Below, piece by piece: positions 6,283-57,399 of a stretch of DNA of 64,000 bases. The stretch spans positions 350,180 through 414,179 of the forward strand of contig SCTI01000002.1 in NCBI GenBank assembly GCA_004297735.1, in the 5' to 3' direction. Within the stretch, counting starts at the first letter, position 1; every line of letters starts with the position of its first letter. Origin of the DNA: Patescibacteria group bacterium (GTDB lineage Bacteria; Patescibacteriota; Saccharimonadia; UBA4664; SCTI01). The notes under the pieces were generated by a model. It ran no database searches, had not been told where the DNA came from, and saw nothing but the letters and a program-made list of their open reading frames with translations. The position numbers were made by a program, and so were the translations under genes.

Positions 6283-6510
6283 GTGGGGAAGGAAAAAGTA
6301 GTGTTTTTTGGCAAGTTTGAAGAATTGTTAATCATCCTCCTGATCGTTTTGATCTTGTTCGGAGGCAAGAAGATTCCTGAATTGGCTCGCAGCATCGGTA
6401 CTTCGGTACGTGAAGTCCGCAAGGGTGTTCGCGGCGAAGATGACGATAGTCAGGTTAAGACCGCTCAGACTACTCGCAGCAGCAAGACCGCAGCCGCTAA
6501 GAAGAGCTAG
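6283..6510 (+). CDS. tatA: twin-arginine translocase subunit TatA/E
   Basis: N-terminal TM helix then amphipathic helix (LLIILLIVLILFGGKKIPELARSIG). Likely true start is GTG at 6301 after ggaaggaaaaag RBS. Confidence 0.7.
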   Translation: MGKEKVVFFGKFEELLIILLIVLILFGGKKIPELARSIGTSVREVRKGVRGEDDDSQVKTAQTTRSSKTAAAKKS

Positions 6511-6516
6511 ATATCG

Positions 6517-7482
6517 GTGGCGACAACCACTGCTATCCATCATGGCCACCAGCCGTTTCTCGACCATATGTACGAGCTTCGGTCCAGAGTGCTTTGGTCG
6601 GTGGCAGTGGTTTTTGCTGGGGCGGCGATTGGATATTTATTCCGCAACCAGCTGATTAGCGCCTTGGCCCAGCCACTCAATATGCCGCTTTATTACACCT
6701 CGCCCAGCGGTGGTTTTTTGTTTGTCATGCAGGTGTGCATGCTGGCTGGTGGACTGATTGCTCTGCCGGTATTTTTGTATAACGGCATCCGTTTTTTTGA
6801 GCCGGCCTTTGCAAAAAGCCGGCTGAGTCGTCAAAAAATTGGGGTCATTATTGCGGCCTCGGCGGTACTGGCAACCGCCGGAGTGCTATTTGCTTACGTC
6901 GTGGTGCTACCAGCTTCGATTCACTTTTTTAGCATGTTTAATGTTGGGCCAGTAAACGCTTGGATTTCGGCAAAAGAGTATTTAACCTTTGCCACCAGCT
7001 ACCTCATGTTGATGGCCTTTTTGTTTCAGCTCCCGCTGATTTTACTGGTGGCTAACTCGATTCGGCGCTTTCCGCCCGGATCAATTGGTAAGTGGCGCAA
7101 ATGGGTGGTGATTGGCAGTTTTGTGGTAGCGGTCCCGCTAACTTACGACATTATGAGCCAAGTTTTAATGGCGGTGCCAATTATTTTGCTTTATGAAATT
7201 TCCGGCTTAATGGTTTGGTCGTTTAATCGGCGACATCATCAAAGGCAGGCGATGATGAGCCATGGAATAACCGGTCTAGAAGATGTTCAATGGGTGGAGC
7301 CAGACCTGCTGGCCGCTTACTTGCAGAGTCAGTCTAATCAGCAAGAGCCGGCTCCGGTCGTGGCGGCTGCGACCGATCCAGCTCCTATTAACGATCAACC
7401 GTTTATGGAAGCACCCCATGTCGAGCCGACTACTCCAACTAAAACCACTCTTGACCAGTCCGGCCCGCTTCAGTTAGGATAA
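6517..7482 (+). CDS. tatC: twin-arginine translocase subunit TatC
   Basis: GTG start 7 nt after the tatA stop. N-terminal FLDHMYELRSR TatC signature and 6 TM helices. Confidence 0.85.
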   Translation: MATTTAIHHGHQPFLDHMYELRSRVLWSVAVVFAGAAIGYLFRNQLISALAQPLNMPLYYTSPSGGFLFVMQVCMLAGGLIALPVFLYNGIRFFEPAFAKSRLSRQKIGVIIAASAVLATAGVLFAYVVVLPASIHFFSMFNVGPVNAWISAKEYLTFATSYLMLMAFLFQLPLILLVANSIRRFPPGSIGKWRKWVVIGSFVVAVPLTYDIMSQVLMAVPIILLYEISGLMVWSFNRRHHQRQAMMSHGITGLEDVQWVEPDLLAAYLQSQSNQQEPAPVVAAATDPAPINDQPFMEAPHVEPTTPTKTTLDQSGPLQLG

Positions 7483-7513
7483 GCACAAGCATTAAAACAG
7501 ACATAGGAGTTAT

Positions 7514-7732
7514 ATGGCTAAGTTACTTGACGATGTTTTATCGCAAGAGATGGATCGCAAAGAGTTTTTGGTGCGCGTCGGTGCCGGTGCCATGGCACTT
7601 GTTGGCATCTCGGGAATGATCAAGGGTCTTACCGGTACAATGGGCGGCGGCCAGGTTAACGGTTACGGATCGGGTTCCTACGGTGGGGTTGAGCCAAGCC
7701 AGCATCAAGCTGGTTCCACCAAACCTTTCTAG
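7514..7732 (+). CDS. small glycine-rich protein with Tat-like signal peptide (RKEFLV)
   Basis: aggag RBS. N-terminus MDRKEFLVRVGAGAMALVGISG resembles the (S/T)RRxFLK motif with an R-K variant and an h-region. The remainder is Gly-rich. Confidence 0.4.
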   Translation: MAKLLDDVLSQEMDRKEFLVRVGAGAMALVGISGMIKGLTGTMGGGQVNGYGSGSYGGVEPSQHQAGSTKPF

Positions 7733-10411: not shown

Positions 10412-12383
10412 TGGCGGTTTGGATCAGAGCTATCGGCGGGCAATAAAGTTTGTTGCCAGTCAGCAAAATAAAAGTGGCAGTTTTGATTGTTTTAGTAGTT
10501 CAAGCGTAGATGATTTTACTGGCGCTGATAGGCATCAGGCAATTTTGCCAATGGCGGTGATATTGAGGGCGCTTAATGGGATGGAGCTTCCGGATGCGAT
10601 TAGGGTTAGGCGAAGTCTAGCTGGTTTTTTGGCGGGGCAGGTTGGGGAGCATGGCAGCTTTAATTACTGGGTGAGAGGTAGTGATAGAGCTAGTCAGCAG
10701 CCGTATCCAGATGACCTGGATGACACTAGCTATGGCTGGTTGGCCCTGACACTCGAGGATCCCAATACGCTTAGCGCTCAGGTGCTAGCCAAGTTGGCTC
10801 AGCTGCTGATGGCCGTTGAGGTTGAGCCCGGTGGACCATATCGAACCTGGCTGGTTGGCAGGGCGGCGGATGCCGAATGGCGGGATGTAGACGTGGCTGT
10901 AAATGCCAATATTTGGTCTTTAATGAGGCGTTTGGGAGTAAACTTGCCGGGCCTTGAAGGATGGCTAACCGTGGCGGTAAAAGAGGGTGAATTAAGGTCG
11001 CGGTATTATCCGGGCGAGGCAGTGATTCTATACTTTTTGGCGGAATGGAGCCGCGGCGAACTTAGGAGTTTGTTGCAGGATCGATGGAGGGCGGAGCTGG
11101 CGCGTAAAGATCATAGCTTGTTAGAGCTAGCTTTGTTGACGGTGGCAGGGGTCTGGCTGGGAGTCGGTCGTTCGACGATTCAGCCGCTCGTGGAAGAGCT
11201 GATAAATAGTCAGGTCATGGACGGTTCGTGGCCGGCTGCAGGATTATGCTATGACCCCGCTAAGGCTGGGCGGTGTTACTACGCGGGGTCGGCGTCGATG
11301 ACAACCGCGTTAGCGGCCCAGGCGTTGTGTTTGGTGCAGGCAATGGACGGTTCGGTCGTGCCCAAGCCGGTTGCGATAGTAAAGTCTGCAAAAGCCGCAC
11401 CAATGTGGCCGGCGGTCAGGCGTCATATTCAAAGGTTGCCGCAGTCCGCCCAAATTTTGGCCGAACCAATTCTCAATAAAGTACACAAACTGGATGCCAG
11501 CCACGGGGTAACGGCGTTGGTGCCGCACATCATGTTACAGATTAAGCCCAAAAATAAAAAACTACCCAAAGGCCATCGGACGGCTCGCAATCACTTAATT
11601 TTAGGGTCACTTTATGGTTGGTTGGCCTACACCGCTTCGGATGACGTTCGGGATGGTGAGGCCGATTACCGGTTGCAGCCACTAATCCAGCTGTGGACTG
11701 GTCAAATGCGCAGCCATTTTTGGCAGGCCAGTGGCAATAGTGAGTACCAGCGATGGACTGACCGACAGCTGCAAATTATGGATATGGCGCACCATTGGGA
11801 GCAGCAAAACACCCGGTTTGAGGGTTCGAGAGTTCGGGTCGATGAGCTGCCGGAATACGGCAGTAGTCGCCGGTTGGCCGAAGGATCAAGTGGTCACTTA
11901 ATTGCGCCGGTTGGGGCGCTAGTGGCTTTGGGGTATGAGTATAATGGCTCGGTTAACCGAAAGTTAAAACTAGCCTTGCGTCATTTAATTGCCGCCCGTC
12001 AGCTACATGATGATGCTCATGATTGGTCGCAGGACTTGGCGGAAGGCCAAATTAATTTTGTGGCGGCTCAAGTACTTCGAGCAGAGTTTAAAAGTCAACG
12101 CGGCAAAACCCTCAACCTGGCCGATCCGCAAACTATGGCTGGTTTAAGACACCGTTTTTGGAGTAATACGGTTGATGACATTTTACCCCTGATTCAGCGG
12201 CATCTGTACGTCGCAGAGCGACAGCTGGCCGACGAGCCATTATTGGGTGGTCTAGAGGATCTAAGTAGGATGATTCAGCAGCTCAAGCAAACCACTCGAG
12301 ACACCTTAGTCCAGCGAAACCAAGCCCGCCGCTTTTTAAGTGAGCTTACTTTTGACCGAGTTGCTGATCGATCAGCTGTTTGA
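10398..12383 (+). CDS. hypothetical 661-aa protein with class II terpene cyclase / prenyltransferase-like alpha/alpha-toroid features (DLDDT motif, QW-like repeats)
   Basis: Overlaps the HK stop by 14 nt. PDDLDDTSYGW matches the DxDDT(A) motif of class II terpene cyclases. QQNKSGSF and QVMDGSW resemble QW / prenyltransferase-squalene oxidase repeats. C-terminal half unassigned. Confidence 0.55.
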   Translation: MKMIDGGLDQSYRRAIKFVASQQNKSGSFDCFSSSSVDDFTGADRHQAILPMAVILRALNGMELPDAIRVRRSLAGFLAGQVGEHGSFNYWVRGSDRASQQPYPDDLDDTSYGWLALTLEDPNTLSAQVLAKLAQLLMAVEVEPGGPYRTWLVGRAADAEWRDVDVAVNANIWSLMRRLGVNLPGLEGWLTVAVKEGELRSRYYPGEAVILYFLAEWSRGELRSLLQDRWRAELARKDHSLLELALLTVAGVWLGVGRSTIQPLVEELINSQVMDGSWPAAGLCYDPAKAGRCYYAGSASMTTALAAQALCLVQAMDGSVVPKPVAIVKSAKAAPMWPAVRRHIQRLPQSAQILAEPILNKVHKLDASHGVTALVPHIMLQIKPKNKKLPKGHRTARNHLILGSLYGWLAYTASDDVRDGEADYRLQPLIQLWTGQMRSHFWQASGNSEYQRWTDRQLQIMDMAHHWEQQNTRFEGSRVRVDELPEYGSSRRLAEGSSGHLIAPVGALVALGYEYNGSVNRKLKLALRHLIAARQLHDDAHDWSQDLAEGQINFVAAQVLRAEFKSQRGKTLNLADPQTMAGLRHRFWSNTVDDILPLIQRHLYVAERQLADEPLLGGLEDLSRMIQQLKQTTRDTLVQRNQARRFLSELTFDRVADRSAV

Positions 12384-12993
12384 GGTTTTGGTAGGTAAAG
12401 CTATCGGATTGTTGACCGTTAATGTAGAAGGTCGGGGTACCTTGTACGCCCAGGGCCTCACCATCGGATTTATCGGCTTCGATGAAGGCGGTATGGGTGT
12501 TGTCGCCAATCTCCTTTTTAAAGCGTTCAATATCGGCCACACCTACTTCGTTGGCGTACTTAATAAAGCTTTCACTTGGGTTTGATAGCTCACTCCACTC
12601 TTGCTGGTTGGCATACAGTTTACTGTTCATCTCCCAGTACTTGTTTTGGGCTCCAGCAGCCTCGGCAGCCTTAGCGGCAGCGATTGCGTTTTGGTGCATT
12701 GGGAGTGGGAAGTTGCGGAAAACAAAGGTGATCTTGTCGCCATACTCCTGTTTGATTCGCTCAACCACCGGCTGGGCCTGTCCGCAAGACGGACACTGGA
12801 AGTCACCAAACTCAACCACGGTTACCGAACCACTACCTTGCTTATGACTGTTGTCCCGAATCAACTTGCTGCTATCGGCTTTTTCGGTGCTGGCTGGCTT
12901 ATCGCTGCCGCTGCCGGTTAAAACAAACAGTCCAACCATGGCGCCAACAACTAGCACTAAGATGGCGGTTAAAATTTTAGCTTCACGACTCAT
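12346..12993 (-). CDS. DsbA-family thiol:disulfide oxidoreductase (membrane-anchored, CPSC active site)
   Basis: N-terminal TM anchor and thioredoxin fold with FGDFQCPSCGQ. Confidence 0.8.
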   Translation of the reverse strand: MSREAKILTAILVLVVGAMVGLFVLTGSGSDKPASTEKADSSKLIRDNSHKQGSGSVTVVEFGDFQCPSCGQAQPVVERIKQEYGDKITFVFRNFPLPMHQNAIAAAKAAEAAGAQNKYWEMNSKLYANQQEWSELSNPSESFIKYANEVGVADIERFKKEIGDNTHTAFIEADKSDGEALGVQGTPTFYINGQQSDSFTYQNLKQLIDQQLGQK

Positions 12994-13429
12994 CTGAACT
13001 CCTCCATTCCACGATCATGCAACCAATAATAACAGTAAAAGCTACTAACGACATAAATGGGATGGTGATGAACCCAAGTAGGTGCACCTGGACGGTGGTG
13101 CAGGATACACCTTGGACACAGGGGGCGAGTGTATCGGGGATGATCTTCCACTGTAACAGGGTGTGGTACAGGGAGATGATCCAGCCGATTAGTGACAGCG
13201 GGAGAACGTACTGCCAAAGTTGGCGCTCGCGGCGAACGATTCCAACCGCCAAAATAATCGCTAACGGGTACATCATGCTGCGCTGGTACCAACACAGCAC
13301 GCAGGGCGGTAGTTTAGCGATCTCGCTGAGGGCGAGGCTCCCCAGGGTGGCAACCAGGGCCTGGGTAAAAGCGATGTAACGACTGTAGATAACCGACTTA
13401 GGCATATTGACCATGATAACCCGCCGCAT
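12983..13429 (-). CDS. disulfide bond formation protein B (DsbB/BdbC family)
   Basis: 4-TM protein with the CVLCWYQR motif typical of BdbC/DsbB. Upstream of, and overlapping, the DsbA-like gene. Confidence 0.7.
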   Translation of the reverse strand: MRRVIMVNMPKSVIYSRYIAFTQALVATLGSLALSEIAKLPPCVLCWYQRSMMYPLAIILAVGIVRRERQLWQYVLPLSLIGWIISLYHTLLQWKIIPDTLAPCVQGVSCTTVQVHLLGFITIPFMSLVAFTVIIGCMIVEWRSSDES

Positions 13430-13506: not shown

Positions 13507-14349
13507 GTGGGATTACGGCACCATTACAAGTTGTTGACTGGAACCGCTCCAAGGCAAACGCTAGGAGTGGTGGTGGCTGTGGTAGTAACCCTAGCGCTGG
13601 CGGCTCCGGCAGTGGTAGCAGCAGCGATCAGCCAGAGCTACCGTGGCGATCAGCAGATTGCAATTGGGGCCTTGGTCGCGTCCAAGGGTGATAGTAGTGA
13701 TCAGGTTGAGTTGGCCGATAGCTCAAATGCCGATAAGCTGGTTGGCGCGGTGGTTGGTGGCAGTGACACGGCGCTAAATCTGTCTAACCCGGGTGATCAA
13801 GTGCAGGTGGCGAGTAATGGCCTAACCAAGGTAATTGTGACCGATCTGCAGGGCGACATTACCAGCGGCACGCAAATTGCCCCATCTTCGATTAAGGGCG
13901 TGGGCGCCAAGGCGACCTCCGCCACCAAGGTGATTGGAGTGGCCCAGAAGGCGGCCGAATACGGCGGCCAAACCGCTACGGTATCGGATAGTAGTGGCAA
14001 GAGTAAACAGGTAAAAATTGGCACGGCAGAGGTTTTGCTGCAAATTGCCTATTACAGTCCACCGCAGTCGAACACTCAGGTGCCACAGTTTTTGCAGCAG
14101 GTAGCCAACTCGGTGGCTGGCCGCGAGGTAACCACCTGGAGAGTGATTACAAGCTTTATCATTTTGATGGCAGCCATTATTGTAATTACGGTACTGCTGT
14201 TTTCGTCGGTGCACAGCACGCTAACGGCGATTGGTCGTAATCCGATGGCGCAGGTTAAAATTTATCGCGGGTTACTAAGGGTGGTGCTGGCGGCTGTGGC
14301 AATTTTTGCGGTGGCGGTTGGAGCGGCCTTTATAGTATTAAGGTTGTAA
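13507..14349 (+). CDS. atypical first gene of the atp operon: signal-peptide/Ser-Gly-rich protein with C-terminal subunit-c-like hairpin lacking the carboxylate
   Basis: Alternative GTG start at about 13570 after aggag. C-terminal helix-loop-helix (..TAIGRNPMAQVKIYRGLLRVVLAAVAIFAVAVGAAFIVL) resembles the c-subunit ARQPE hairpin, but helix 2 has no Asp/Glu. Confidence 0.45.
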   Translation: MGLRHHYKLLTGTAPRQTLGVVVAVVVTLALAAPAVVAAAISQSYRGDQQIAIGALVASKGDSSDQVELADSSNADKLVGAVVGGSDTALNLSNPGDQVQVASNGLTKVIVTDLQGDITSGTQIAPSSIKGVGAKATSATKVIGVAQKAAEYGGQTATVSDSSGKSKQVKIGTAEVLLQIAYYSPPQSNTQVPQFLQQVANSVAGREVTTWRVITSFIILMAAIIVITVLLFSSVHSTLTAIGRNPMAQVKIYRGLLRVVLAAVAIFAVAVGAAFIVLRL

Positions 14350-14353
14350 TGAG

Positions 14354-14974
14354 GTGAGTATGACAGAAATTCTTTATGCCGTTATTGGTCTTCAAATCCT
14401 ATTAACCGGGCTGGTTGTAGTTGTGTTGTGGCGGGCCCGCCGGCCGGTCAAGCCTGCCGCTAAGCCAGCCGTTTCGGCCGCCAGCGAAGCCGAGCTGCGT
14501 CAGCAGATCGAGGCGCAGCAGCAAGCCATGCTCAAGCGACTACAGGAGGAAACCCAGAGCTCATTTGAGCAATCGGTGAGCGAATCATCAAAACTGTTTC
14601 GATCGGACCTGGCCGAAACATCTAAAAAGCTCAACACCTTGATTGTGCGCTTAACGACCGAGGTGGTTGAACGGGAGCTAGATGAGTACCGTCAGAGCTT
14701 GGTGGCTGCTCGCCAACAAGCCTTAACCAGTTTGCAGCAAATGCAGCAGTCGGTCGAAGAAAAGCAGCGTGCGCTGGAGGCCGACGTTAACAGTGAGCTA
14801 GCTAAACGGCAGCAGTATCTGTTGGAACGCCTGGATCAGCGCCTGGGACAGGCGGTAACCTCTTACCTAGTCGAGGCGCTGGGCCAAGGGGCCGACTTGG
14901 GGGCTCAGCGTGAGTACTTGTTGGCTCAGCTCGAGGCGCATAAGGATGAGTTGAAAAAAGAGGTCAAGCAGTGA
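14354..14974 (+). CDS. atpF: F-type ATPase subunit b-like (N-terminal TM plus long coiled coil)
   Basis: Single TM then charged coiled-coil, positioned before delta. Confidence 0.55.
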   Translation: MSMTEILYAVIGLQILLTGLVVVVLWRARRPVKPAAKPAVSAASEAELRQQIEAQQQAMLKRLQEETQSSFEQSVSESSKLFRSDLAETSKKLNTLIVRLTTEVVERELDEYRQSLVAARQQALTSLQQMQQSVEEKQRALEADVNSELAKRQQYLLERLDQRLGQAVTSYLVEALGQGADLGAQREYLLAQLEAHKDELKKEVKQ

Positions 14975-15444
14975 TAAAGGCGCTTCCTAATCAAGTTTAT
15001 TCGCCCGACCATCTGCATTTTTGCATTGAGGAGCTGACGCTGTACGCGGCAGCGGTGGGTAAGGCGCTGCGAAGTAAAAAACCAATTCCCGAAGCACCAA
15101 CCTCGGCCGAAAGCCAGGCTTTGCTCGAGCTGCTACCGGCCACCAGCAAGCTATCAATCCAGGAACAGCTTCAGCAGCTGGTGAGTGAGCTGGAGTCGTT
15201 GGCCGCTCAGCTACCGGTCGTTCATATTACGCTGGTATCGCCGGCACCCTACAGCTTAAAGCAAGAGCTGGTTGGGTGGATACGCACCAATCTTAACTCG
15301 CTAGCATTGGTAGCCTTCCATGCTAATCCCGATGTGGCGGGTGGTTTGATAGTGAGAGCCGGCAACGCCACGATCGATGAGTCGTTTCGAAGTAGGCTGC
15401 AGCGCAATCCGGCTAGTCTAACGGAGATTTTAGCCAATGTATGA
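14971..15444 (+). CDS. atpH: F-type ATPase subunit delta (OSCP)
   Basis: C-terminal GGLIVRAGNATIDESFRSRLQ matches the delta-subunit signature. Translationally coupled to neighbours. Confidence 0.65.
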   Translation: MIKALPNQVYSPDHLHFCIEELTLYAAAVGKALRSKKPIPEAPTSAESQALLELLPATSKLSIQEQLQQLVSELESLAAQLPVVHITLVSPAPYSLKQELVGWIRTNLNSLALVAFHANPDVAGGLIVRAGNATIDESFRSRLQRNPASLTEILANV

Positions 15445-16854
15445 CAATAAGGCGTTTCAGCGCTTAATGGATGATGGTCGGACCAACGGCGAGGTAATTA
15501 GCCTTAAAGGCTTGGATTTGATGATTAAGGGCCTCGAAGGTGCTAGCGTAAACTCGTTAATACTGTTTGAATGTGGCGAGCGTGGTTTGGTGCGGGCAAT
15601 TCATGATCATTGCGTTGAGGTGCTGGCTTTTTCGGTCAAAAACATACGCATCGGTACGGTTGGCGTATTAGAGCAAGAAACCTACCAGGCTGGCGTAGGC
15701 GACGCTTTGGTTGGTCGAGTGATGAATGTGGCGGGCGAGGCGCTTGACGGCAAAGGCGCGATCACGCCGACCGGTTACGCCGAGGTTTTTGCCACCGCTC
15801 CGGGTGTAGCCGAGCGCCAACTAGTCGATAAGCAGCTGGTTAGTGGTGTGGCGATTGTGGACAGTTTGTTCCCCTTGGTGCTTGGCCAGCGCATGGCGAT
15901 ACTGGGTGATAGCAAGACCGGCAAAAGCACCTTTTTACGCCAACTAACCACCAGTCAAGCCCAGGAAGGCAGGGTGGTTATATACGTTTTAATTGCCAAG
16001 CGACAGATTGAGATTGACGCCTTAATCCAGCACCTTAATACCACGGGAGCAATTAAGCGCAGTATTGTAATTGTCGCGAGCGCCTTTGAGTCGCTCAGCC
16101 TCGCCTATTTAGCTCCTTATGTTGGCTGTACGGTTGGCGAGTATTTTTGGAGACAGGGCAAGGATGTGGTGGTGGTTTATGATGACTTGAGCAGTCACGC
16201 CAAGATTTATCGTGAGCTATCTTTGCTGGCGGAGGTAAGCCCCGGCCGTGACTCATACCCTGGTGACATGTTTTATGCGCACTCCTCACTACTGGAGCGA
16301 GCCGGCAAGCTAGCCAAAGGCGGCGGAACCTTGACGGCGCTGCCGGTGGTGCTCACCCCAAATGACGACATCACCTCTTATCTTTCTACCAGCTTAATGT
16401 CGATTACCGACGGTCAGATCATTTTTGATCAAGATAATTTTAGGCGCGGAGTCAGGCCGGCGGTTAATGTTGGACTGTCGGTCTCGCGCGTCGGTGGGCG
16501 AGTTCAGAGCCCAGAATGGAAAACCTTAACGGTTAATCTGTTCCGCAAACTTGCCGACTACCGGCAGGCGGCTGAGTTTGCTCAGTTCGGGTCGGAGCTG
16601 GCGGCTCAAACTCAGGCCGATCTAGCTTTGGGTCGATCGGTATACGAAATTTACCGCCAAACCCCGCAAGAGCTTCACAGTGTAACGGCTCAGTATTTAA
16701 TGTTGGCGACGGTTTTAGCTGGAGGGGGTAAGGTAACGATTAACATCCCGCTGCTTAAAAAGCTGGCCACCGAGCGCGCCGCCGGTAAGCCGGCCGAGGA
16801 TTGGAGCCAAGAGGTGCAGCAGCTGTTGGCACAGGTTAAGGTTGGGGTGTCGGT

Positions 16855-16858
<4 letters not shown>
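15437..16858 (+). CDS. atpA: F-type ATPase subunit alpha
   Basis: P-loop GDSKTGKS; global match to F1 alpha (AIVDSLFPLVLGQR..., ITDGQIIFD). Confidence 0.85.
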
Positions 16859-19050
<2,192 letters not shown>

Positions 19051-19051
<1 letters not shown>

Positions 19052-19305
19052 TGGCTGAGCAGCCGCGTTTTAAGGTTAAGGTTTTTTCGCCCTACCAAAC
19101 CTTTTACAAGGGTACCGCGTTGTCGCTTTCGGCCCAAAACGCTACCGGCCCGTTTGATGTGCTGTTTAACCACGGCAACTTCTTTACCCTAATATCTCCG
19201 GGGATTGTAAGGGTGGATACCGGTTATGATACGGTCGAAATTGAGGTGACACGTGGCATTATGCGAGTGGCCGACAACAACGTAACGCTGTTCGCTAACG
19301 TATAG
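19051..19305 (+). CDS. atpC: F-type ATPase subunit epsilon (N-terminal beta-sandwich only)
   Basis: 84 aa, at the epsilon position, ATGA-coupled to atpD. Confidence 0.6.
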
Positions 19306-40302: not shown

Positions 40303-40803
40303 TCACACCTGTAGCACAACGCCAACGAGCAGTCCGAGCATGGTGGCAAGACCACCCATAATTAACACTTCAAGAGCGCTACGGTTGGGTGGGCGGTGGA
40401 CGATTTTACCCTTAATGTAGCCAACAATATAGAGGGCAATTAGAGCGGAGCTAACTCCGACTACGAGAGAGGTTGGGTAGGATAAAACGGCCATTGGCAG
40501 AACCGGAATTACGCCGGCAGCGGCGTAGGCCAGGAACATAACCAGTCCGGTCCCGGCCGGGCTGGTTCGGTCTCCGTCCATTTCGTCAACCGCCTTTTGG
40601 CTGAGGTACTGGCCGACTCCCATACTAAGCGCCTCAACTGAAACGCCAACCAACCCTGCTAGTAAAACGACTTGTGGATCTTGACTACCGGCGGCAATAC
40701 CGGCAACTAGACCGGTGGTTGAAACCAAGCTGTCTTCAATGCCGAAGAAAGCGCTACGAAGGTAGTCGCTGGCACCTTGATTATGGCGGGCAATTTTAAA
40801 CAT
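40303..40803 (-). CDS. VIT1/CCC1-family (DUF125) membrane protein
   Basis: Characteristic glycine-rich TM pattern (GLVAGIAAGS...VGVSVEALSMGVGQY). Confidence 0.65.
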   Translation of the reverse strand: MFKIARHNQGASDYLRSAFFGIEDSLVSTTGLVAGIAAGSQDPQVVLLAGLVGVSVEALSMGVGQYLSQKAVDEMDGDRTSPAGTGLVMFLAYAAAGVIPVLPMAVLSYPTSLVVGVSSALIALYIVGYIKGKIVHRPPNRSALEVLIMGGLATMLGLLVGVVLQV

Positions 40804-41254
40804 GTTGTATCTCCTGTATGTCTTTCAATATTTTTATGGCTTGGTCTTGGGGTTTTACGTCATGGTATTCTTTTACGATAATACCCTCTGGGTCAACTAT
40901 GTAAGTATTTCGGTGAATACCTAAGAATTCCCGCCCCATAAATTTTTTTGGGCCCCAAGCTCCAAAAGCTTGAATCACCTTTTTGTCCGGATCACTCAGA
41001 AGAGTAAATTTTAGGTTGTGGTTTTCGGCAAATTTTTTGTGCTTGGCAACCGTATCCGCCGAAATGCCCAGAACAGTGACATTGTGGCGTTCAAGCTCTT
41101 CTCGCCCATCACGAAAACTACACGCTTGCTTTGTGCATCCAGGGGTGTCGTCCTTGGGGTAAAAATAAACAACCACCCATTTGCCGCGGTAGTCGTGAAG
41201 ACTATGATCTGCACCGTTTTGGTCTGGAAGGGTAAAGTCGGGAGCCGGTCTCAT
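40796..41254 (-). CDS. bcp: thiol peroxidase, Bcp-type peroxiredoxin
   Basis: APDFTLPDQNG...VVYFYPKDDTPGCTKQAC. Confidence 0.85.
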   Translation of the reverse strand: MRPAPDFTLPDQNGADHSLHDYRGKWVVVYFYPKDDTPGCTKQACSFRDGREELERHNVTVLGISADTVAKHKKFAENHNLKFTLLSDPDKKVIQAFGAWGPKKFMGREFLGIHRNTYIVDPEGIIVKEYHDVKPQDQAIKILKDIQEIQHV

Positions 41255-47378: not shown

Positions 47379-47455
47379 GGGCCCATAGCTCAGTTGGTTA
47401 GAGCGAGAGCCTTTTAAGCTCTGCGTCCTGGGTTCGAATCCCAGTGGGCCCTCCA
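47379..47455 (+). tRNA. tRNA-Lys (UUU)
   Basis: GGGCCCATAGCTCAGTTGGTTAGAGCGAGAGCCTTTTAAGCTCTGCGTCCTGGGTTCGAATCCCAGTGGGCCCTCCA. Confidence 0.85.
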
Positions 47456-47537: not shown

Positions 47538-47921
47538 CTACCGCTTACGAAAATCAAGTACTCCATGTGATTTAGTAATGACTTTGAGGTTTTTCGCACT
47601 TTTAATATCTGTGAACTCTTTTTCTAGTCTCACGATATTTACCTTGTCCGGCATTTTAGAATTACGTAGATCAAATATTATATTCTTTGATTGCCCCAGA
47701 GCTACTTTAAACGCGCGCTTTATTGTATGAGTGCTCTTGCCGGTCGGGCACTTTATTTCCCAGTCGATACCAGCCATTCTAATATCTGGAGTTCTCGCAC
47801 CTTTGCGCTGAACGGGTGGGAGTAGTTCAATATCGAAACCTTGATCTGTCAGGAATACGACCGTAGCATTTTCGTGCGTATGAAGAACGACGCCGTTTGG
47901 TGTTATTTTACCCTTTTTCAT
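47538..47921 (-). CDS. small PD-(D/E)xK nuclease-fold protein, Hjc/Mrr-like (127 aa), low-GC
   Basis: HENATVVFLTDQGFDIELLP...TPDIRMAGIDWEIKCPTGKST parallels the E...PD...(D/E)xK arrangement of archaeal Hjc-type resolvases and restriction-endonuclease-like nucleases. AT-rich codons. Confidence 0.45.
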   Translation of the reverse strand: MKKGKITPNGVVLHTHENATVVFLTDQGFDIELLPPVQRKGARTPDIRMAGIDWEIKCPTGKSTHTIKRAFKVALGQSKNIIFDLRNSKMPDKVNIVRLEKEFTDIKSAKNLKVITKSHGVLDFRKR

Positions 47922-51595: not shown

Positions 51596-52339
51596 ATGTC
51601 CGGACACTCAAAATGGCACTCAATTAAACATCAAAAAGCGGCCGCTGACGCCAAGCGCGGAGCAGCGTTTACTAAGTTGGCTAACGCCATTGCGCTGGCT
51701 ACTAAAAAGGGCGGTAGCGATCCGGAGACTAATTTTTCGTTGCGCCTGGCAATTCAAAAAGCCAAAGCCTCTAACATGCCGGCCGCTAACATTGAGCGCT
51801 CAATTAAGCGTGGCTCGGGTCAGTTGGGCGGAGATCAGATTGAAGAGATTACTTATGAGGGCTACGGCCCGGGCGGGGTGGCGCTCATTATTGAGGTGGC
51901 GACCGATAATCGCAATCGCACCGGCCCTGAGGTCCGCACCGCCTTAAGTAAGTCGGGTGGTCGCATGGCCGATGCCGGCTCGGTGGCGTACCAGTTTGAC
52001 TACCGTGGAACTCTTCGCCTAAAGCCAAGTGACATCGAGGCTGCCACGTTGGACGCGATTGAGGCCGGGGCGGTTGATGTGGATGAGGATGAGGACGAGC
52101 TGATCGTATATACCAACCCCAAGGAACTCAATGCGGTTCAGACCAAGTTGACCGAAATGGGTTACACGCCAGAGTCGGCCGAGCTGGCTTACATTCCTAA
52201 AAACACCATCGTAATCAGCGATCAAAAAACCGCCCAACAGATTATTAAGCTGATGGACACGCTTGACGATATGGATGACGTTACTGCAACTCATGCAAAC
52301 TTTGATTTCGATGAAGAGACGGCCAAGGCTTTGGCATGA
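51596..52339 (+). CDS. YebC/PmpR-family DNA-binding regulatory protein
   Basis: MSGHSKWHSIKHQKAAADAKRG N-terminus. Confidence 0.9.
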   Translation: MSGHSKWHSIKHQKAAADAKRGAAFTKLANAIALATKKGGSDPETNFSLRLAIQKAKASNMPAANIERSIKRGSGQLGGDQIEEITYEGYGPGGVALIIEVATDNRNRTGPEVRTALSKSGGRMADAGSVAYQFDYRGTLRLKPSDIEAATLDAIEAGAVDVDEDEDELIVYTNPKELNAVQTKLTEMGYTPESAELAYIPKNTIVISDQKTAQQIIKLMDTLDDMDDVTATHANFDFDEETAKALA

Positions 52340-52818
52340 AAATTCTTGGCATCGACCCCGGAACCGCTACGACCGGGTTTGGTGTGATTGAAAAGCAGGG
52401 TGATAAACTTAGATTTGTTGATGCCGGGGTGATTTCAACCACACCGGACGAGGAGATGCACCGCCGGCTGGTTAGAATTGATGAGTGCCTGGAGCAGCTG
52501 ATCACCGAGCACAACCCGGATATGGTAGCGGTGGAGCAGCTTTACTTTGCGACCAATGTTACCACCGCCATCACGGTTGGCCAGGCTCGTGGCGTGGTTT
52601 TGCTGGCGGCTGGCCGGCATGCTCTGCCGCTTCACGAATATACCCCGCTGCAGGTTAAACAGGCGGTAACTGGGTACGGCAAGGCCGATAAAAAACAGGT
52701 TCAAGAGATGGTTAAGATGATTTTACAGCTAGATGGCATACCAAAACCGGATGATGCGGCCGATGGACTGGCAATTGCAATCACGCACGCCAACCAGGGC
52801 GTGGGAGTTAGAGCATGA
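52336..52818 (+). CDS. ruvC: crossover junction endodeoxyribonuclease RuvC
   Basis: ILGIDPGTATTGFGVI...MVAVEQLYF motifs. Confidence 0.9.
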   Translation: MKILGIDPGTATTGFGVIEKQGDKLRFVDAGVISTTPDEEMHRRLVRIDECLEQLITEHNPDMVAVEQLYFATNVTTAITVGQARGVVLLAAGRHALPLHEYTPLQVKQAVTGYGKADKKQVQEMVKMILQLDGIPKPDDAADGLAIAITHANQGVGVRA

Positions 52819-53390
52819 TCGCAACGATTGAGGGAGCGGTGGCCGAAAAGCTGGCCGGCAGCGTTGTGGTTGAGCTAGGTGGCATTGGGTACGAGGTAGT
52901 GGTATCGGTGGCCGACTGGGGTGCCGCGGCAATTGGCTCTACAACCAAGTTTTATGTTTACGAGCACATTCGCGAGGACTCACATCAGTTATTCGGCTTT
53001 AATAGTCGCTCCGATAAAGAGTTATTTATTTTGCTGTTAAGTGTTAACGGTGTGGGCCCCAAGGTCGCGATGCAGGTTATGAGCGCGGCCACTGGCGAGC
53101 GACTACGCGCCGCAATCGCTTCGGGTGACTCCAGCTTGTTTAAAAATGTGTCGGGGGTTGGTAAAAAAACGGCTGAGCGCATAATGGTTGAATTAAAGAA
53201 CAAGGTTGAGGCTGGCGGAGAGATTGGGGTTGAGCTTACGGGCGGCGGGGTCGGTAGCGAAGATCCTGCCTACCAGGCACTAATTGGCTTAGGCTATAAG
53301 CCGGCCCAGGCGGCGGCGGCGGTTTCATCTCTACCCAGCGAGGTGACCGACGAGCAAGAGCGAGTAAGATTGGCTCTCAGGAATCTTTAA
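52815..53390 (+). CDS. ruvA: Holliday junction DNA helicase RuvA
   Basis: Domain I OB fold, HhH motifs (VNGVGPKVAMQV, VSGVGKKTAERI). Confidence 0.9.
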   Translation: MIATIEGAVAEKLAGSVVVELGGIGYEVVVSVADWGAAAIGSTTKFYVYEHIREDSHQLFGFNSRSDKELFILLLSVNGVGPKVAMQVMSAATGERLRAAIASGDSSLFKNVSGVGKKTAERIMVELKNKVEAGGEIGVELTGGGVGSEDPAYQALIGLGYKPAQAAAAVSSLPSEVTDEQERVRLALRNL

Positions 53391-53433: not shown

Positions 53434-53925
53434 ATGAGCCAACTCGCCTCAGCTCCAAAAACTAAATATGCGGTGCCGGTAGCGGTGATAGCGCTGCTAC
53501 TGTTTGGCATTTTAAGCGCCTATATTATCAAGTCCAGTTCACCTGTCAATAATCAGGCCGGCATTTCCTCAACCGCGACCGAAGCATCCACTTCTTCGAC
53601 CGGTGCCTCAGCCACTAGTTCAAGCACGCAGTTTAAAGACGGCACCTATTCGGCGGAGGGAGATTATGCGACACCGGGTGGAACCGAAGCGATTGACGTT
53701 ACTTTAACGGTAAAGGGCGGAGTGGTAACCGATAGTTCGGTTTCGCAGCAGCCGGCCGATCATGACTCCCGGGCTTACCAGATGGAGTTTGCTAAAAGCT
53801 ACAAGAGCAGCGTGGTTGGCCGTAGCTTATCCGAACTTAAACTTGATGTGGTGGCCGGCTCATCGCTCACCTCCGGCGGCTTTAACGAGGCGGTGGACAG
53901 TATTCGGACTCAAGCGAGCTCCTAG
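53434..53925 (+). CDS. membrane-anchored FMN-binding domain protein (FMN_bind)
   Basis: Signal anchor, Ser/Thr linker, then FMN_bind pattern (DGTYSAEGDYATPGGTEAIDVTLTVKGGVVTD...VVAGSSLTSGGFNEAVDSI). Confidence 0.6.
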   Translation: MSQLASAPKTKYAVPVAVIALLLFGILSAYIIKSSSPVNNQAGISSTATEASTSSTGASATSSSTQFKDGTYSAEGDYATPGGTEAIDVTLTVKGGVVTDSSVSQQPADHDSRAYQMEFAKSYKSSVVGRSLSELKLDVVAGSSLTSGGFNEAVDSIRTQASS

Positions 53926-53926
53926 G

Positions 53927-54811
53927 ATGGGCTCGACCGGCTTTGAGTTTAAGGCGATTGGCACCAGCTGGAAGATTGAGATTTACGATGATTTATCGCC
54001 GAGCGGCCATAAAGAAATTAAGCTTGCAATCGATCGGCGCATAGATCAATTCGACCAAATCTATTCGCGCTTTCGGCCCGATTCGCTGGTTTCGCAAATC
54101 GCTAAATCTCCTGGTAAGTATCAATTCCCTGATGACTCGGTCGAGCTGTTTAAACTATATCGAACGGCTTATGAGCTGACCGTAGGCTTGGTTACACCGC
54201 TGATTGGCGGCATGATGGCTGACGCCGGTTACGACCGGGATTATAGCTTTAAGCAGCGCCCAATTCGCACGGTTCCAGATTGGGATGAGGTGATGAGTTT
54301 TAGTGGCACCACCTTAACCACCAGGCAGCCGGTACAGCTTGATTTTGGCGCCGCCGGCAAGGGTTACCTGGTTGACTTGGTTGGCGAGGTGCTTGAGCGG
54401 CATGGCTACAGGCAGTACCTGGTTAATGCTGGAGGGGACATGCGTCACCGGGGCCGCTCGCCGTTAAGGGTTGGCTTGGAGGACCCGACCGACAGCACCA
54501 AGGCGATTGGGGTGTTTGAGCTGCGTAATAAAAGTCTTTGCGCTTCGGCAACCAACCGGCGGCGGTGGGGCGATTATCATCACGTTATGGATCCAGCCGC
54601 CCAAAAATCTACCGATCGTGTGGTGGCAACTTGGGCGGTGGCCGATACTACCGCTCTGGCCGACATGGCCGCAACAGCGCTCTTTTTTAGCACTCCCGAT
54701 CAGCTGCACCAGCTTGGCAGTTTTGAGTACGCGCTAATAGATAAGGGCGGCCATATGGTTGCTTCGTCCGCCTTGGAGCCGGCAATTTTTAAGCCAAAGG
54801 GTATACAATAG
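53927..54811 (+). CDS. apbE: FAD:protein FMN transferase ApbE
   Basis: ATG 2 nt after the upstream stop. ApbE family motifs (LDFGAAGKGYLVDL..., VNAGGDMR). Confidence 0.8.
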   Translation: MGSTGFEFKAIGTSWKIEIYDDLSPSGHKEIKLAIDRRIDQFDQIYSRFRPDSLVSQIAKSPGKYQFPDDSVELFKLYRTAYELTVGLVTPLIGGMMADAGYDRDYSFKQRPIRTVPDWDEVMSFSGTTLTTRQPVQLDFGAAGKGYLVDLVGEVLERHGYRQYLVNAGGDMRHRGRSPLRVGLEDPTDSTKAIGVFELRNKSLCASATNRRRWGDYHHVMDPAAQKSTDRVVATWAVADTTALADMAATALFFSTPDQLHQLGSFEYALIDKGGHMVASSALEPAIFKPKGIQ

Positions 54812-54815
54812 AGTT

Positions 54816-56327
54816 ATGAAGCCAATCATCGATTACGTTGACGCCGTCTTAAACTCAATCACGATGTACAGATTGGTTTTGTATGTGCTACTAACAATTA
54901 GTAGCTTAGCTCTAATTTTATCTTTGCTAGGGCTGATGAGTTACGACCCGGTAGCGTTGGTGCTATCGGCGGCGGTCCTGGTTGGCGTAAGCTGGAGTGT
55001 TAACCAAATCCTGGCACTGCTGTTTAAGGCCCAGACCAGCGTTGAGGCATCGCTGATAACCGGGCTAATTTTATTCCTTATCCTTAAGCCAACCTCCGAT
55101 CCACTAGGGTTGCTAGTGTTGGTGGCGGCTGGCGTGGTGGCGGTGGCTCCCAAGTACTTTTTTGGGCCACTGCGGAGCGTGTTCAACCCGGCCGCAATTG
55201 CAGCATTAACGGTAAGCTTCTTGGGCTTAACCAGTGCAACTTGGTGGGTGGGCAGTAAGGTCTTGCTACCAGTCGTTTTTGTGGCGGGTGTGTTGCTTAT
55301 TCGCAAGCTGCATAAATTCCAGCTTGTTGGCCTGTTTTGGCTAACGGTACTGGCGGTGGTGGTAGTGACGGCATTTATTGATGGTAGCGATAAAGGTGCT
55401 GCCATAAAAATTGCGGTTCTGTCCGGGCCATTGGTGTTTATGGGTACGGTGATGCTAACCGAACCGACTACGCTGCCACCAACCAGAAAATGGCAATGGG
55501 TTTATGCGGTGGTGGTGGGATTATTGTTTAGCGTGCAGTTTCAACTGGGGCCGCTTGACTCCAGCCCGGAGCTAGCTTTGGTGGCGGGTAACCTGTTGGG
55601 TTACGCGGTTAGTGGAAAACGCCGAATTACGCTGCGCTGGGTCAAAACCACTCAACTCGCGCCTTCTCTGTATGAGTTTATTTTTACATCGAACTATTGG
55701 TTAAAGTATCAGCCGGGCCAGTACTCTGAGTGGACACTGTCGCATCATCGCCCAGATGATCGTGGCACTCGCCGCTTCTTTACGGTTGCCTCTGCTCCTA
55801 ACGGCCAGACGGTTCGCCTGATGGCCCGCATTAATCCCGAATCAATGAGTTCGTACAAGCGGGCGATGTTGCAGCTTAAGGCTGGTTCGGTGGTGGGCGG
55901 AGGCAAAATGGAGGGTGATTTTACACTGCCTCGGTCGCCTGATCAAAAGCTAGGCTGGATTGCTGGTGGTATTGGTGTAACGCCGTTTGTAGCAATGGCG
56001 GAATGGCTCGGACAGTCTCAGCAACAGCGCGATGTGGCCATGTTGTATACGGCGGCTAAGCCAACCGAGTTCTTGGTTGATGAGCTGTGGACTAACACTC
56101 CTGGTCTGCGGTTAACCAAGGTTGTAACCGACCAAAAATCCGAGGGCTGGCAGGGCGAAACCGGCTTTATTGATGCGGCAATGTTACGGCGAAACGTCCC
56201 TGATTTTAAGGAGCGGCGGTGGTATATCTCTGGCCCTAATGCGATGGTGGTAAATTATCGCTGGATGCTGATTAAGGCGGGAGTGCCATTCAACCAAATT
56301 GTGACCGACTACTTTTCGGGTTATTAA
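54816..56327 (+). CDS. membrane flavoprotein: N-terminal polytopic domain fused to ferredoxin-NADP reductase-like FAD/NAD(P)-binding domain
   Basis: The ORF-track start (54759) is an upstream extension; ATG at 54816 follows the apbE stop. RRFFTVAS (RxYS FAD motif) and GGIGVTP (NAD motif). Confidence 0.6.
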   Translation: MKPIIDYVDAVLNSITMYRLVLYVLLTISSLALILSLLGLMSYDPVALVLSAAVLVGVSWSVNQILALLFKAQTSVEASLITGLILFLILKPTSDPLGLLVLVAAGVVAVAPKYFFGPLRSVFNPAAIAALTVSFLGLTSATWWVGSKVLLPVVFVAGVLLIRKLHKFQLVGLFWLTVLAVVVVTAFIDGSDKGAAIKIAVLSGPLVFMGTVMLTEPTTLPPTRKWQWVYAVVVGLLFSVQFQLGPLDSSPELALVAGNLLGYAVSGKRRITLRWVKTTQLAPSLYEFIFTSNYWLKYQPGQYSEWTLSHHRPDDRGTRRFFTVASAPNGQTVRLMARINPESMSSYKRAMLQLKAGSVVGGGKMEGDFTLPRSPDQKLGWIAGGIGVTPFVAMAEWLGQSQQQRDVAMLYTAAKPTEFLVDELWTNTPGLRLTKVVTDQKSEGWQGETGFIDAAMLRRNVPDFKERRWYISGPNAMVVNYRWMLIKAGVPFNQIVTDYFSGY

Positions 56328-56370: not shown

Positions 56371-57399
56371 ATGATTGAGCGCGTTACGGTAGCGGCCGAA
56401 CAGACCGACGATCCAGTTGAGCAGCAGCTGGAAGAGACTTTGCGCCCCAAAACTTTTGATAGCTACATTGGGCAGCAACTACTTAAAGATACTTTGCAGC
56501 TTGCGATCGAAGCCGCTAAAGGACGATCCGAATCGGTAGACCACATCTTGCTTTATGGCCCTCCCGGTCTAGGTAAGACCACCATGGCTGGTGTGATCGC
56601 GGCCGAGATGGGTTCAAGCTTGCGGGTTACTTCTGGGCCAGCCATTGAGCGGGCCGGTGATTTAGCCTCAATCTTAACCAACTTGCAGGATGGCGATATT
56701 TTGTTTGTTGATGAGATTCACCGTTTACCCAAAACGGTCGAAGAGGTGTTGTACCCGGCGATGGAGGATTTTGGCATCGACATTATGCTGGGTAAAGGCC
56801 CGTCGGCCAAGTCGATGCGGCTGGACCTGCCCAAGTTCACCATTATTGGAGCGACCACTAGGGTAGGTACGCTGGGAGCGCCGTTCCGTGATCGCTTTGG
56901 CATGGTGCAGCGCCTGGAATATTACACCGAGGCTGAAATGGTAAAAATTCTTAAGCGGTCGGCCCGGATATTAGATATTAAGCTAGAGGATGCGGCGGCG
57001 ATAGAGATTGCCCGTCGTTCTCGCTTGACGCCCCGAATTGCCAACCGCTTACTTAAGCGGGTGCGCGACTTTGCTCAGGTGCGCCATGGCGGGGTAATTA
57101 CCGCCGAGGTGGCGCATGAAGCGTTGGGCATGCTCGAAATTGATGACTTGGGTTTGGATGCCAGCGATCGCCGCTTGCTCAAGGCAATCATCGATAATTA
57201 TGATGGTGGACCGGTTGGTCTGCAGACAATCGCGGCGTTGACTTCGGAAGATCAGTCGACGATTGAGGATGTTCATGAGCCATACTTGATGCAGCTAGGG
57301 TTGCTAGAGCGAACCAACCGAGGAAGAAAGGTTACTAAAAAAGCTTACTTACATTTAGGGGTTGAGCCGCCGGCCGACGCTCAAGCCAGCTTGCTATGA
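56371..57399 (+). CDS. ruvB: Holliday junction branch migration helicase RuvB
   Basis: Walker [10 protein letters not shown], Walker B DEIH, sensor 2. Confidence 0.95.

Follow-up and report, generated by a model that had tools for sequence, protein, structure and literature searches.

Three tightly packed genes on the + strand fill the interval between ruvA and ruvB in a 64,000-nt stretch of DNA from a Patescibacteria group bacterium (the window, with coordinates counted from its first letter), and they probably encode a transmembrane oxidoreductase of the Nqr/Rnf-like type that uses only flavins, along with the enzyme that matures it. The first product, p1 (FMNb; 53434..53925, 163 aa), is an NqrC/RnfG-like protein with a domain for binding flavin mononucleotide (FMN), the second, p2 (53927..54811, 294 aa), is an ApbE-type flavin adenine dinucleotide (FAD):protein FMN transferase, and the third, p3 (54816..56327, 503 aa), fuses an N-terminal membrane domain of the RnfD/NqrB fold (aa 1-270, 54816..55625) to a C-terminal FNR-like FAD/NAD(P)H module (aa 271-503, 55626..56327). 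These domain assignments, already made in an initial annotation of the DNA, are supported by Pfam and NCBIfam matches and by family profiles. In the mechanism that we propose, NAD(P)H would reduce the FAD presumed to occupy the cytoplasmic FNR module of p3, which is recognizable by its fold and motifs. Electrons would then traverse the membrane within the RnfD/NqrB-fold domain, probably by way of a non-covalent flavin, and reach an FMN that would be phosphoester-linked to Ser144 of p1, an anchored protein whose motif and topology, as read from the sequence, point to an outward position. The ApbE p2 would install this FMN on Ser144, using FAD as its substrate. Electrons would move only outward, against the direction taken in the second half of the RNF path. 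In RNF and NQR, the RnfD/NqrB subunit holds riboflavin and a covalent FMN.

The logic of a path from NAD(P)H through a membrane domain to an extracytoplasmic flavoprotein had been put forward in the initial annotation. It is supported here, and it coincides with a model published in two studies (PMC8238504, PMC10979944). In Méheust et al. 2021 (eLife; PMC8238504), NQR/RNF-like systems are defined as a fusion of PF03116 and PF00175 in a flavinylation cluster, the fusion gene lying within five genes of an ApbE and/or FMN_bind gene, and 127 such clusters are reported, mainly in Actinobacteria and the candidate phyla radiation (CPR). The window has this arrangement, with PF03116 in the N-terminal and PF00175 in the C-terminal part of p3 and with the ApbE and FMN_bind genes immediately upstream. 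The NQR/RNF-like systems, as published, have an architecture identical to that of the cassette, a one-way path from NAD(P)H to an extracytosolic flavin, and no conservation of the NqrB/RnfD Thr. The type of system is already known from genomes, including those of CPR bacteria, and there is no difference in kind. What is particular to the cassette is its position between ruvA and ruvB, the GSS (Ser) acceptor paired with an ApbE of ~290 aa, and an ApbE that never has an export signal. The initial annotation had called the module notable for an organism of this lifestyle; the system is indeed present, but its occurrence in CPR bacteria was already in the literature.

The fusion protein and the predicted path across the membrane

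The p3 protein scores 33.6 bits against NQR2_RnfD_RnfE (PF03116) and 47.7 bits against NAD_binding_1 (PF00175). An AlphaFold model from the single sequence was unusable (pLDDT 39), but the model built from a 120-sequence alignment reached a pLDDT of 94.1 and a pTM of 0.90, and it contains ten membrane helices followed, from about residue 271, by a beta-barrel and Rossmann module. The membrane domain of the model shows the full RnfD/NqrB fold. A phmmer search of the PDB with p3 matched neither RnfD nor NqrB, whereas the membrane-domain family profile matches RnfD in the PDB over the C-terminal half of the domain only, aligning RnfD residues 223-329 and, weakly, the FNPA motif near residue 120, and skipping 143-222. 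The motifs of the FNR module are intact, with RRFFTVAS at 319, GDF at 367, AGGIGVTP at 383, SGPNAM at 472 and a C-terminal YFSGY, and residues 279-500 align to complete FAD/NAD(P)H reductase modules in NCBIfam.

Lysine and arginine alternate between the loops of the membrane domain. Among the 120 homologues, the N-terminus, loops 2-3, 4-5, 6-7 and 8-9 and the segment after helix 10 have a mean K+R sum of 10.95, compared with 0.81 for loops 1-2, 3-4, 5-6, 7-8 and 9-10. By the positive-inside rule, both ends of the domain and the FNR module are therefore predicted to be cytoplasmic, and the loop carrying W143-W144 to be outside. This outer loop (136-150) bears the two tryptophans invariantly, and in 105 of 109 family sequences the distance from FNPAA to WW is 15 residues. 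Only 41 of the 120 homologues have S/T just before WW, and the family, to judge from these sequences, lacks the conserved flavinylation Thr of NqrB/RnfD. Loss of that Thr from the Nqr/Rnf-like membrane subunit is also noted by Huang et al. 2024 (PMC10979944). We considered TSAT, p3 residues 139-142, as a relic flavinylation site and rejected it as a feature of the family, the position being S/T in only 34% of sequences. The window protein itself reads LTSAT-WW, and since T142 happens to be present, flavinylation of this particular p3 may be possible.

Does the membrane domain conserve energy? It has the full fold of subunits from complexes that couple electron transfer to ions, as described in the accessible parts of PMC10979944 and PMC12052999, and could itself couple electron transfer to Na+ or H+ translocation, as NQR and RNF do. 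In a variant of this idea, the ion gradient of the F-type ATPase would drive the reaction the other way; an F-type ATP synthase operon is present in the window (13507-19305). The polar residues K113, N124, E216, T219 and N259, in or near the membrane, are invariant in the 120 homologues and would suit such a role. However, in the cassette and the scanned open reading frames (ORFs) of the window there was neither NqrD/E nor RnfA/E, the pair that takes electrons outward along the U-shaped path of published models, and a one-way path offers no obvious redox loop. We regard energy conservation by the module as unlikely.

The FMN_bind protein and its predicted acceptor residue

Behind a hydrophobic N-terminal anchor (aa 13-32, nt 53470-53529), p1 has a linker rich in Ser and Thr and a C-terminal domain assigned to FMN_bind; the anchor is present in all p1 homologues. 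Fourteen of 23 close homologues match Pfam FMN_bind at E <= 0.01, with a best E-value of 1.6e-6. The window protein aligns to the solved FMN-binding domain of PDB 8p2a, with DVVAGSSLTS over DAVSGATYTS, and a profile of the 23-sequence p1 family gives the same alignment (E = 0.008). The flavinylated Thr of SGAT in 8p2a lies over the second Ser of AGSS in p1, and this residue, Ser144 (codon 53863-53865, in the motif DVVAGSSLTSGGF), is the predicted flavinylation site. It is invariant across the 23 homologues in the alignment of the window subtype, and an x-G-[AS]-[ST] acceptor motif is found in 75 of 76 p1 homologues overall. The DVVAGSS of p1 fits the ApbE acceptor motif D-x-x-[ST]-G-[AS]-[ST] except for the Ala at -3, a position that is usually S/T. 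We consider Ser144 the most likely FMN acceptor of p1. The initial annotation had directed attention to a Thr in the SSLTSGG segment, and in this it was not borne out: the Thr there, T146, sits two residues past the aligned Ser144.

The ApbE without an export signal and the predicted sidedness of the flavins

The identity of p2 as an ApbE is clear. It scores 152.4 bits against PF02424, for which the curated cutoff is 25.6, its best PDB matches are ApbE structures from E. coli and other bacteria, and its GKGY (residue 144), GGD (169) and HHVMDP (218) motifs align to those of E. coli ApbE, so that the HV(M/I)DP, GKGY and GGD catalytic motifs are all intact. Against the NCBIfam equivalog for E. 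coli-type ApbE it reaches 60.3 bits, below the cutoff of 498. A sequence scan found no signal peptide, lipobox or hydrophobic segment in p2. When p2 is aligned with the crystal construct of E. coli ApbE, from which the signal peptide was removed, residue 5 of p2 falls on residue 17 of the construct, and there is therefore no room for a leader; p2 begins at the first strand of the mature ApbE fold. By this evidence, the cassette ApbE is predicted to be cytoplasmic. Secretion or lipoprotein signals are typical, though not universal, of ApbEs serving NQR, RNF or extracellular electron transfer.

In the opposite direction, the FMN_bind domain of p1 is predicted from several sequence features to face outward. 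Homologues from actinobacteria and one from Peribacteria carry a lipobox, L-[AS]-[GA]-C, at the anchor, and are therefore taken to be exported. K/R residues are in excess before the anchor in 43 loci and after it in 18, the p1 subtype found in the window has a Ser/Thr/Pro-rich linker after the anchor, and the homologous subunits NqrC and RnfG are extracytoplasmic. The published AlphaFold-multimer model of a Ktedonobacter complex (Huang et al. 2024, PMC10979944) also puts the NqrC/RnfG-like subunit on the outer face, and the authors propose that its covalent flavin reaches the non-covalent flavin site of the membrane subunit. These points all speak against a wholly cytoplasmic arrangement, in which an inward p1, flavinylated by the signal-less ApbE, would link the FNR module to the membrane domain as an electron shuttle, making the system a membrane-tethered intracellular NAD(P)H reductase. 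That arrangement would account for the absence of an ApbE export signal from 73 of 73 cassettes, and it would sit comfortably with the weak charge bias at the window p1 anchor (2 K before the anchor, 1 after it) and with the existence of cytosolic ApbEs with cytosolic targets, as in Klebsiella pneumoniae (PMC12052999). We nevertheless think it very unlikely. The topology of the initial annotation, with the FNR module inside and the FMN_bind domain outside, is upheld by the loop charges of the 120 p3 homologues and by the p1 anchors and lipoboxes; the analysis led neither to a placement of all flavin domains in the cytoplasm nor to a match between the membrane domain and an unrelated transporter.

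Several observations weigh against the outward, flavin-only conduit that we favour. The p1 protein of the window scores 17.6 bits against Pfam FMN_bind (PF04205), below the gathering score of 22. Our literature search found no experimental study of any member of the Nqr/Rnf-like family. An N-terminal hydrophobic stretch was found in the cassette ApbEs of none of the 73 loci, which come from five phyla, even when the ORF was extended to the preceding stop codon. Those ApbEs that have been characterized as partners of NQR, RNF or extracellular electron transfer are lipoproteins and are exported, and a cytosolically expressed ApbE did not complement an apbE knockout (PMC12052999). The searchable text of the two papers on Nqr/Rnf-like systems (PMC8238504, PMC10979944) does not address where the ApbE is located.

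How, then, might a cytoplasmic transferase modify a domain that is predicted to lie outside? The initial annotation had assumed that the ApbE FMNylates the outward domain; the enzyme and the acceptor motif agree with this, but the predicted cytoplasmic location of the ApbE does not. FMN may be attached to p1 before or during its export, a second, exported ApbE may be encoded elsewhere in the genome, or the cassette ApbE may have another role. The ApbE is apparently translationally coupled to its substrate gene, and a signal-less cytosolic ApbE, so coupled, that attaches FMN to an NqrC/RnfG-like protein before or during export would be an undescribed route; we offer it tentatively and consider it rather doubtful. 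In a variant, the ApbE may act on the fusion protein from the inside. The cytosolic ApbE of Klebsiella pneumoniae is likewise devoid of a secretion signal, but its substrate, a soluble fumarate reductase, is itself cytosolic (PMC12052999), whereas the only evident substrate of the cassette ApbE is predicted to be extracytoplasmic.

Export of pre-flavinylated p1 by the twin-arginine translocation (Tat) system was considered, tatA and tatC being present in the window, and is unsupported: p1 has no twin-arginine motif, only ~3 of 76 homologues have one, and no tat genes neighbour the cassettes at the surveyed loci. A minimal Tat translocase is encoded at 6283-7732 of the window, comprising TatA (75 aa, PF02416, 56 bits) and TatC (321 aa, PF00902, 145.5 bits), which is unexpected in a small CPR genome. 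Directly after these genes is an ORF of 72 aa whose N-terminus, DRKEFLVRVGAGAMALVG, resembles a Tat signal with RK replacing RR.

The locus and its distribution

Both flanking genes are unambiguous by Pfam: ruvA (52815..53390, +) has RuvA_N, HHH_5 and RuvA_C domains, and ruvB (56371..57399, +) has RuvB_N (255.7 bits), AAA_lid_4 and RuvB_C. Further upstream, and equally clear, are yebC (51596-52339, with Pfam YebC domains) and ruvC (52336-52818, Pfam RuvC, 193 bits). The ORF list and verified coordinates confirm that three packed genes separate ruvA from ruvB, as first annotated, with gaps of 1-4 nt inside the cassette and of 43 nt on each side, between ruvA and the cassette and between the cassette and ruvB. 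Two of the starts had to be chosen within longer frames. The longest ORF in the ApbE frame begins at 53762 and would give 349 aa, with a spurious N-terminus and a 164-nt overlap with the FMN_bind gene at its 3' end; homologues support the ATG at 53927, two bases past the p1 stop. The longest p3 ORF begins at a TTG (54759) and would give 522 aa, whereas homologues begin with MK(A/P)IIDY, corresponding to the ATG at 54816 and a protein of 503 aa. ComEC, type IV pilus genes, an F-type ATPase and a DnaK operon are also encoded in the window.

A one-genome-per-species scan returned 80 cassette loci, and synteny counts were taken over 82 loci. They are spread over many CPR classes, Chloroflexota (Dictyobacter, Ktedonospora, Anaerolineae), Actinomycetota (Agreia, Herbiconiux, Salinibacterium, Arthrobacter, Cellulomonas), Alphaproteobacteria (Mesorhizobium, Kaistia) and Spirochaetota, and Saccharibacteria and Saccharimonadales are among the genomes with the nearest relatives of the window cassette. 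Across five phyla, 68 of the 82 independent loci keep the order FMN_bind, ApbE, fusion, so the adjacency of the three genes is not due to chance. Of the candidates scored, more than 1,900 are related to the fusion protein at E <= 1e-5, and an exhaustive search at E <= 1e-30 yielded 564 clusters at 50% identity. No ApbE/FMN transferase appears in the gene table and annotation supplements of Southlakia epibionticum, a genetically tractable Saccharibacterium, which probably lacks the cassette.

The cassettes fall into two subtypes. In the first, p1 has the motif V-S-G-A-T and the ApbE is ~247 aa long and begins MKxTRxLMGMP; in the second, to which the window belongs, p1 has [SA]-G-S-S-L-T and the ApbE is ~290 aa long and begins ..FEAIGTxW. 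The covariation of ApbE subtype and acceptor motif might be taken as independent evidence that enzyme and substrate are paired. We rejected it as such because the fusion-protein tree also splits broadly along the two subtypes, the whole cassette being co-inherited.

What might explain the position of the cassette in the ruv operon? The arrangement ruvA, cassette, ruvB was found in 3 of the 82 loci, namely the window and two relatives whose fusion proteins are 70% and 59% identical to p3 and whose synteny is otherwise identical to that of the window. The interruption reported by the initial annotation is real, but among the 82 loci it is confined to these three. In a Saccharimonadales genome (locus L062), the order is ComEC-YebC-x-cassette-RuvC-RuvA-RuvB, with ruvCAB intact downstream, and the arrangement in the window therefore amounts to a simple block swap. 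The position between ruvA and ruvB results from a block rearrangement that is local and lineage-specific, in a compact genome. The small number of loci at this position and the intact ruvCAB of L062 led us to reject a functional link to Holliday-junction resolution.

The cassette could instead be a functionally meaningless passenger, recently acquired or decaying, that happened to land inside the ruv operon. Its context differs widely between lineages, and the grouping of a Saccharimonadales fusion protein with actinobacterial copies by neighbour-joining hints at horizontal transfer. Set against this, the three ORFs are intact and their motifs conserved, the GC content is uniform over the region and the same in the cassette as in its flanks, and the arrangement is retained in the two relatives despite such modest identity of the fusion protein. 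A promoter/terminator scan, in itself uninformative, showed no terminator-like site separating the cassette from ruvA or ruvB. A passenger origin seems to us highly improbable. In the neighbour-joining tree, the fusion protein of L062 groups with the Microbacteriaceae, Arthrobacter and Cellulomonas copies (L070-L078), which weakly hints at gene transfer between Saccharibacteria and actinobacterial hosts, in a distance tree with long branches.

Comparison with other electron transfer systems

RNF and Na+-NQR have six or seven subunits, compared with two in the cassette. A Pfam scan of the cassette and of a set of the longer window ORFs, chosen not to overlap, turned up no RnfA/E/B/C or NqrA/D/E/F, and none of the iron-sulfur components of the larger complexes (RnfB, RnfC and the NqrF 2Fe-2S domain). 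In the cassette the FNR module is fused to the RnfD-like domain, which is without a conserved covalent FMN site. The path of RNF and Na+-NQR is U-shaped, whereas that of the cassette, as proposed, is linear, with no evident quinone or ferredoxin partner.

The Listeria extracellular electron transfer system (Ndh2, EetA/B, DmkA, FmnB and PplA), to which the initial annotation compared the cassette through PplA and FmnB, shares its logic, with electrons passing from NADH to a surface FMN_bind protein that is flavinylated by an ApbE. The likeness extends to the cell envelope, which probably has a single membrane. The p1 protein scores 25.6 bits against the NCBIfam PplA model NF041941, for which the cutoff is 325, and is not a PplA orthologue; the closest relatives of the cassette are of the NqrC/RnfG, NqrB/RnfD and NqrF lineage. 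No Ndh2, quinone or EetA/B components were seen, and the membrane step, which in Listeria uses quinone and EetA/B, would here be made by the RnfD-fold domain. Unlike FmnB, a lipoprotein, the cassette ApbE has no signal. The NOX/FRE ferric reductases and NADPH oxidases, such as SpNOX, have a six-helix, two-haem ferric reductase domain unrelated to the membrane domain of p3; with its RnfD fold and presumed flavins, the cassette would be a haem-free analogue of these enzymes and not a homologue.

Candidate electron donors and acceptors

The neighbours of the cassette vary widely, the most frequent being two-component systems (15-21 loci) and MacAB-like ABC exporters (9-22 loci). Some loci have neighbours related to metals. 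NRAMP is immediately downstream of the cassette in three (L013, L023, L033), VIT1 adjoins it in four (L047, L048, L055, L064), Fur is immediately upstream in two (L003, L004), and P-type ATPases are near it in five. Six Nqr/Rnf-like clusters with VIT1 are also noted by Méheust et al. 2021 (PMC8238504). A malic enzyme, which produces NAD(P)H, adjoins the cassette in two loci (L019, L038). As to the physiological acceptor and donor, genomic context offers no clue beyond these metal-related and malic enzyme neighbours. The best lead for the final acceptor is extracellular Fe(III), reduced for iron uptake. It has to be set against the fact that metal-related neighbours occur in only ~10 of 82 loci and that in the window no metal gene is beside the cassette. 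The next option is a general sink that re-oxidizes NAD(P)H in a quinone-free, fermentative organism.

Elsewhere in the window, 13 kb upstream of the cassette on the - strand (40303-41254), a gene for a VIT1-family iron transporter (166 aa, 98 bits in two stretches) overlaps by a few bases a gene for an AhpC/TSA peroxiredoxin (148.8 bits), pairing iron handling with a peroxidase. A second flavin redox enzyme, an NADPH-dependent FMN reductase family protein (PF03358, 53 bits), is encoded at 1583-2308. A DsbA-like thioredoxin (215 aa) and DsbB (148 aa) are encoded as a pair at 12346-13429 on the - strand. The usual electron acceptors of DsbB are quinones, and the scanned ORFs of the window showed no quinone system. 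A stand-alone 127-aa protein with a CdiA_C toxin domain (PF18451, 44.3 bits) is encoded at 47538-47921 on the - strand, adjoining a tRNA gene (47379-47452), with no CdiA delivery region visible.

Biological significance

CPR bacteria, or Patescibacteria, are described as fermentative and as having no electron-transport chains. If our proposal is correct, a two-subunit, flavin-only route would let them shed reducing power or reduce extracellular iron with neither haem nor quinone, and the same outlet would be open to many Actinomycetota, Chloroflexota and rhizobia. The locus described here is a clean, compact example of a system that has been predicted from genomes only. The survey sharpens two testable points, the subtype with a Ser acceptor and an ApbE that is apparently across the membrane from its substrate, and cultivable carriers such as Agreia, Herbiconiux, Mesorhizobium and Dictyobacter put experiments within reach. 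If the doubtful route of flavinylation by a cytosolic ApbE were real, the cassette could, in many CPR bacteria, be the sole membrane redox device, free of haem and quinone, and the conduit might deliver reducing equivalents to iron or to the surface of a host cell.

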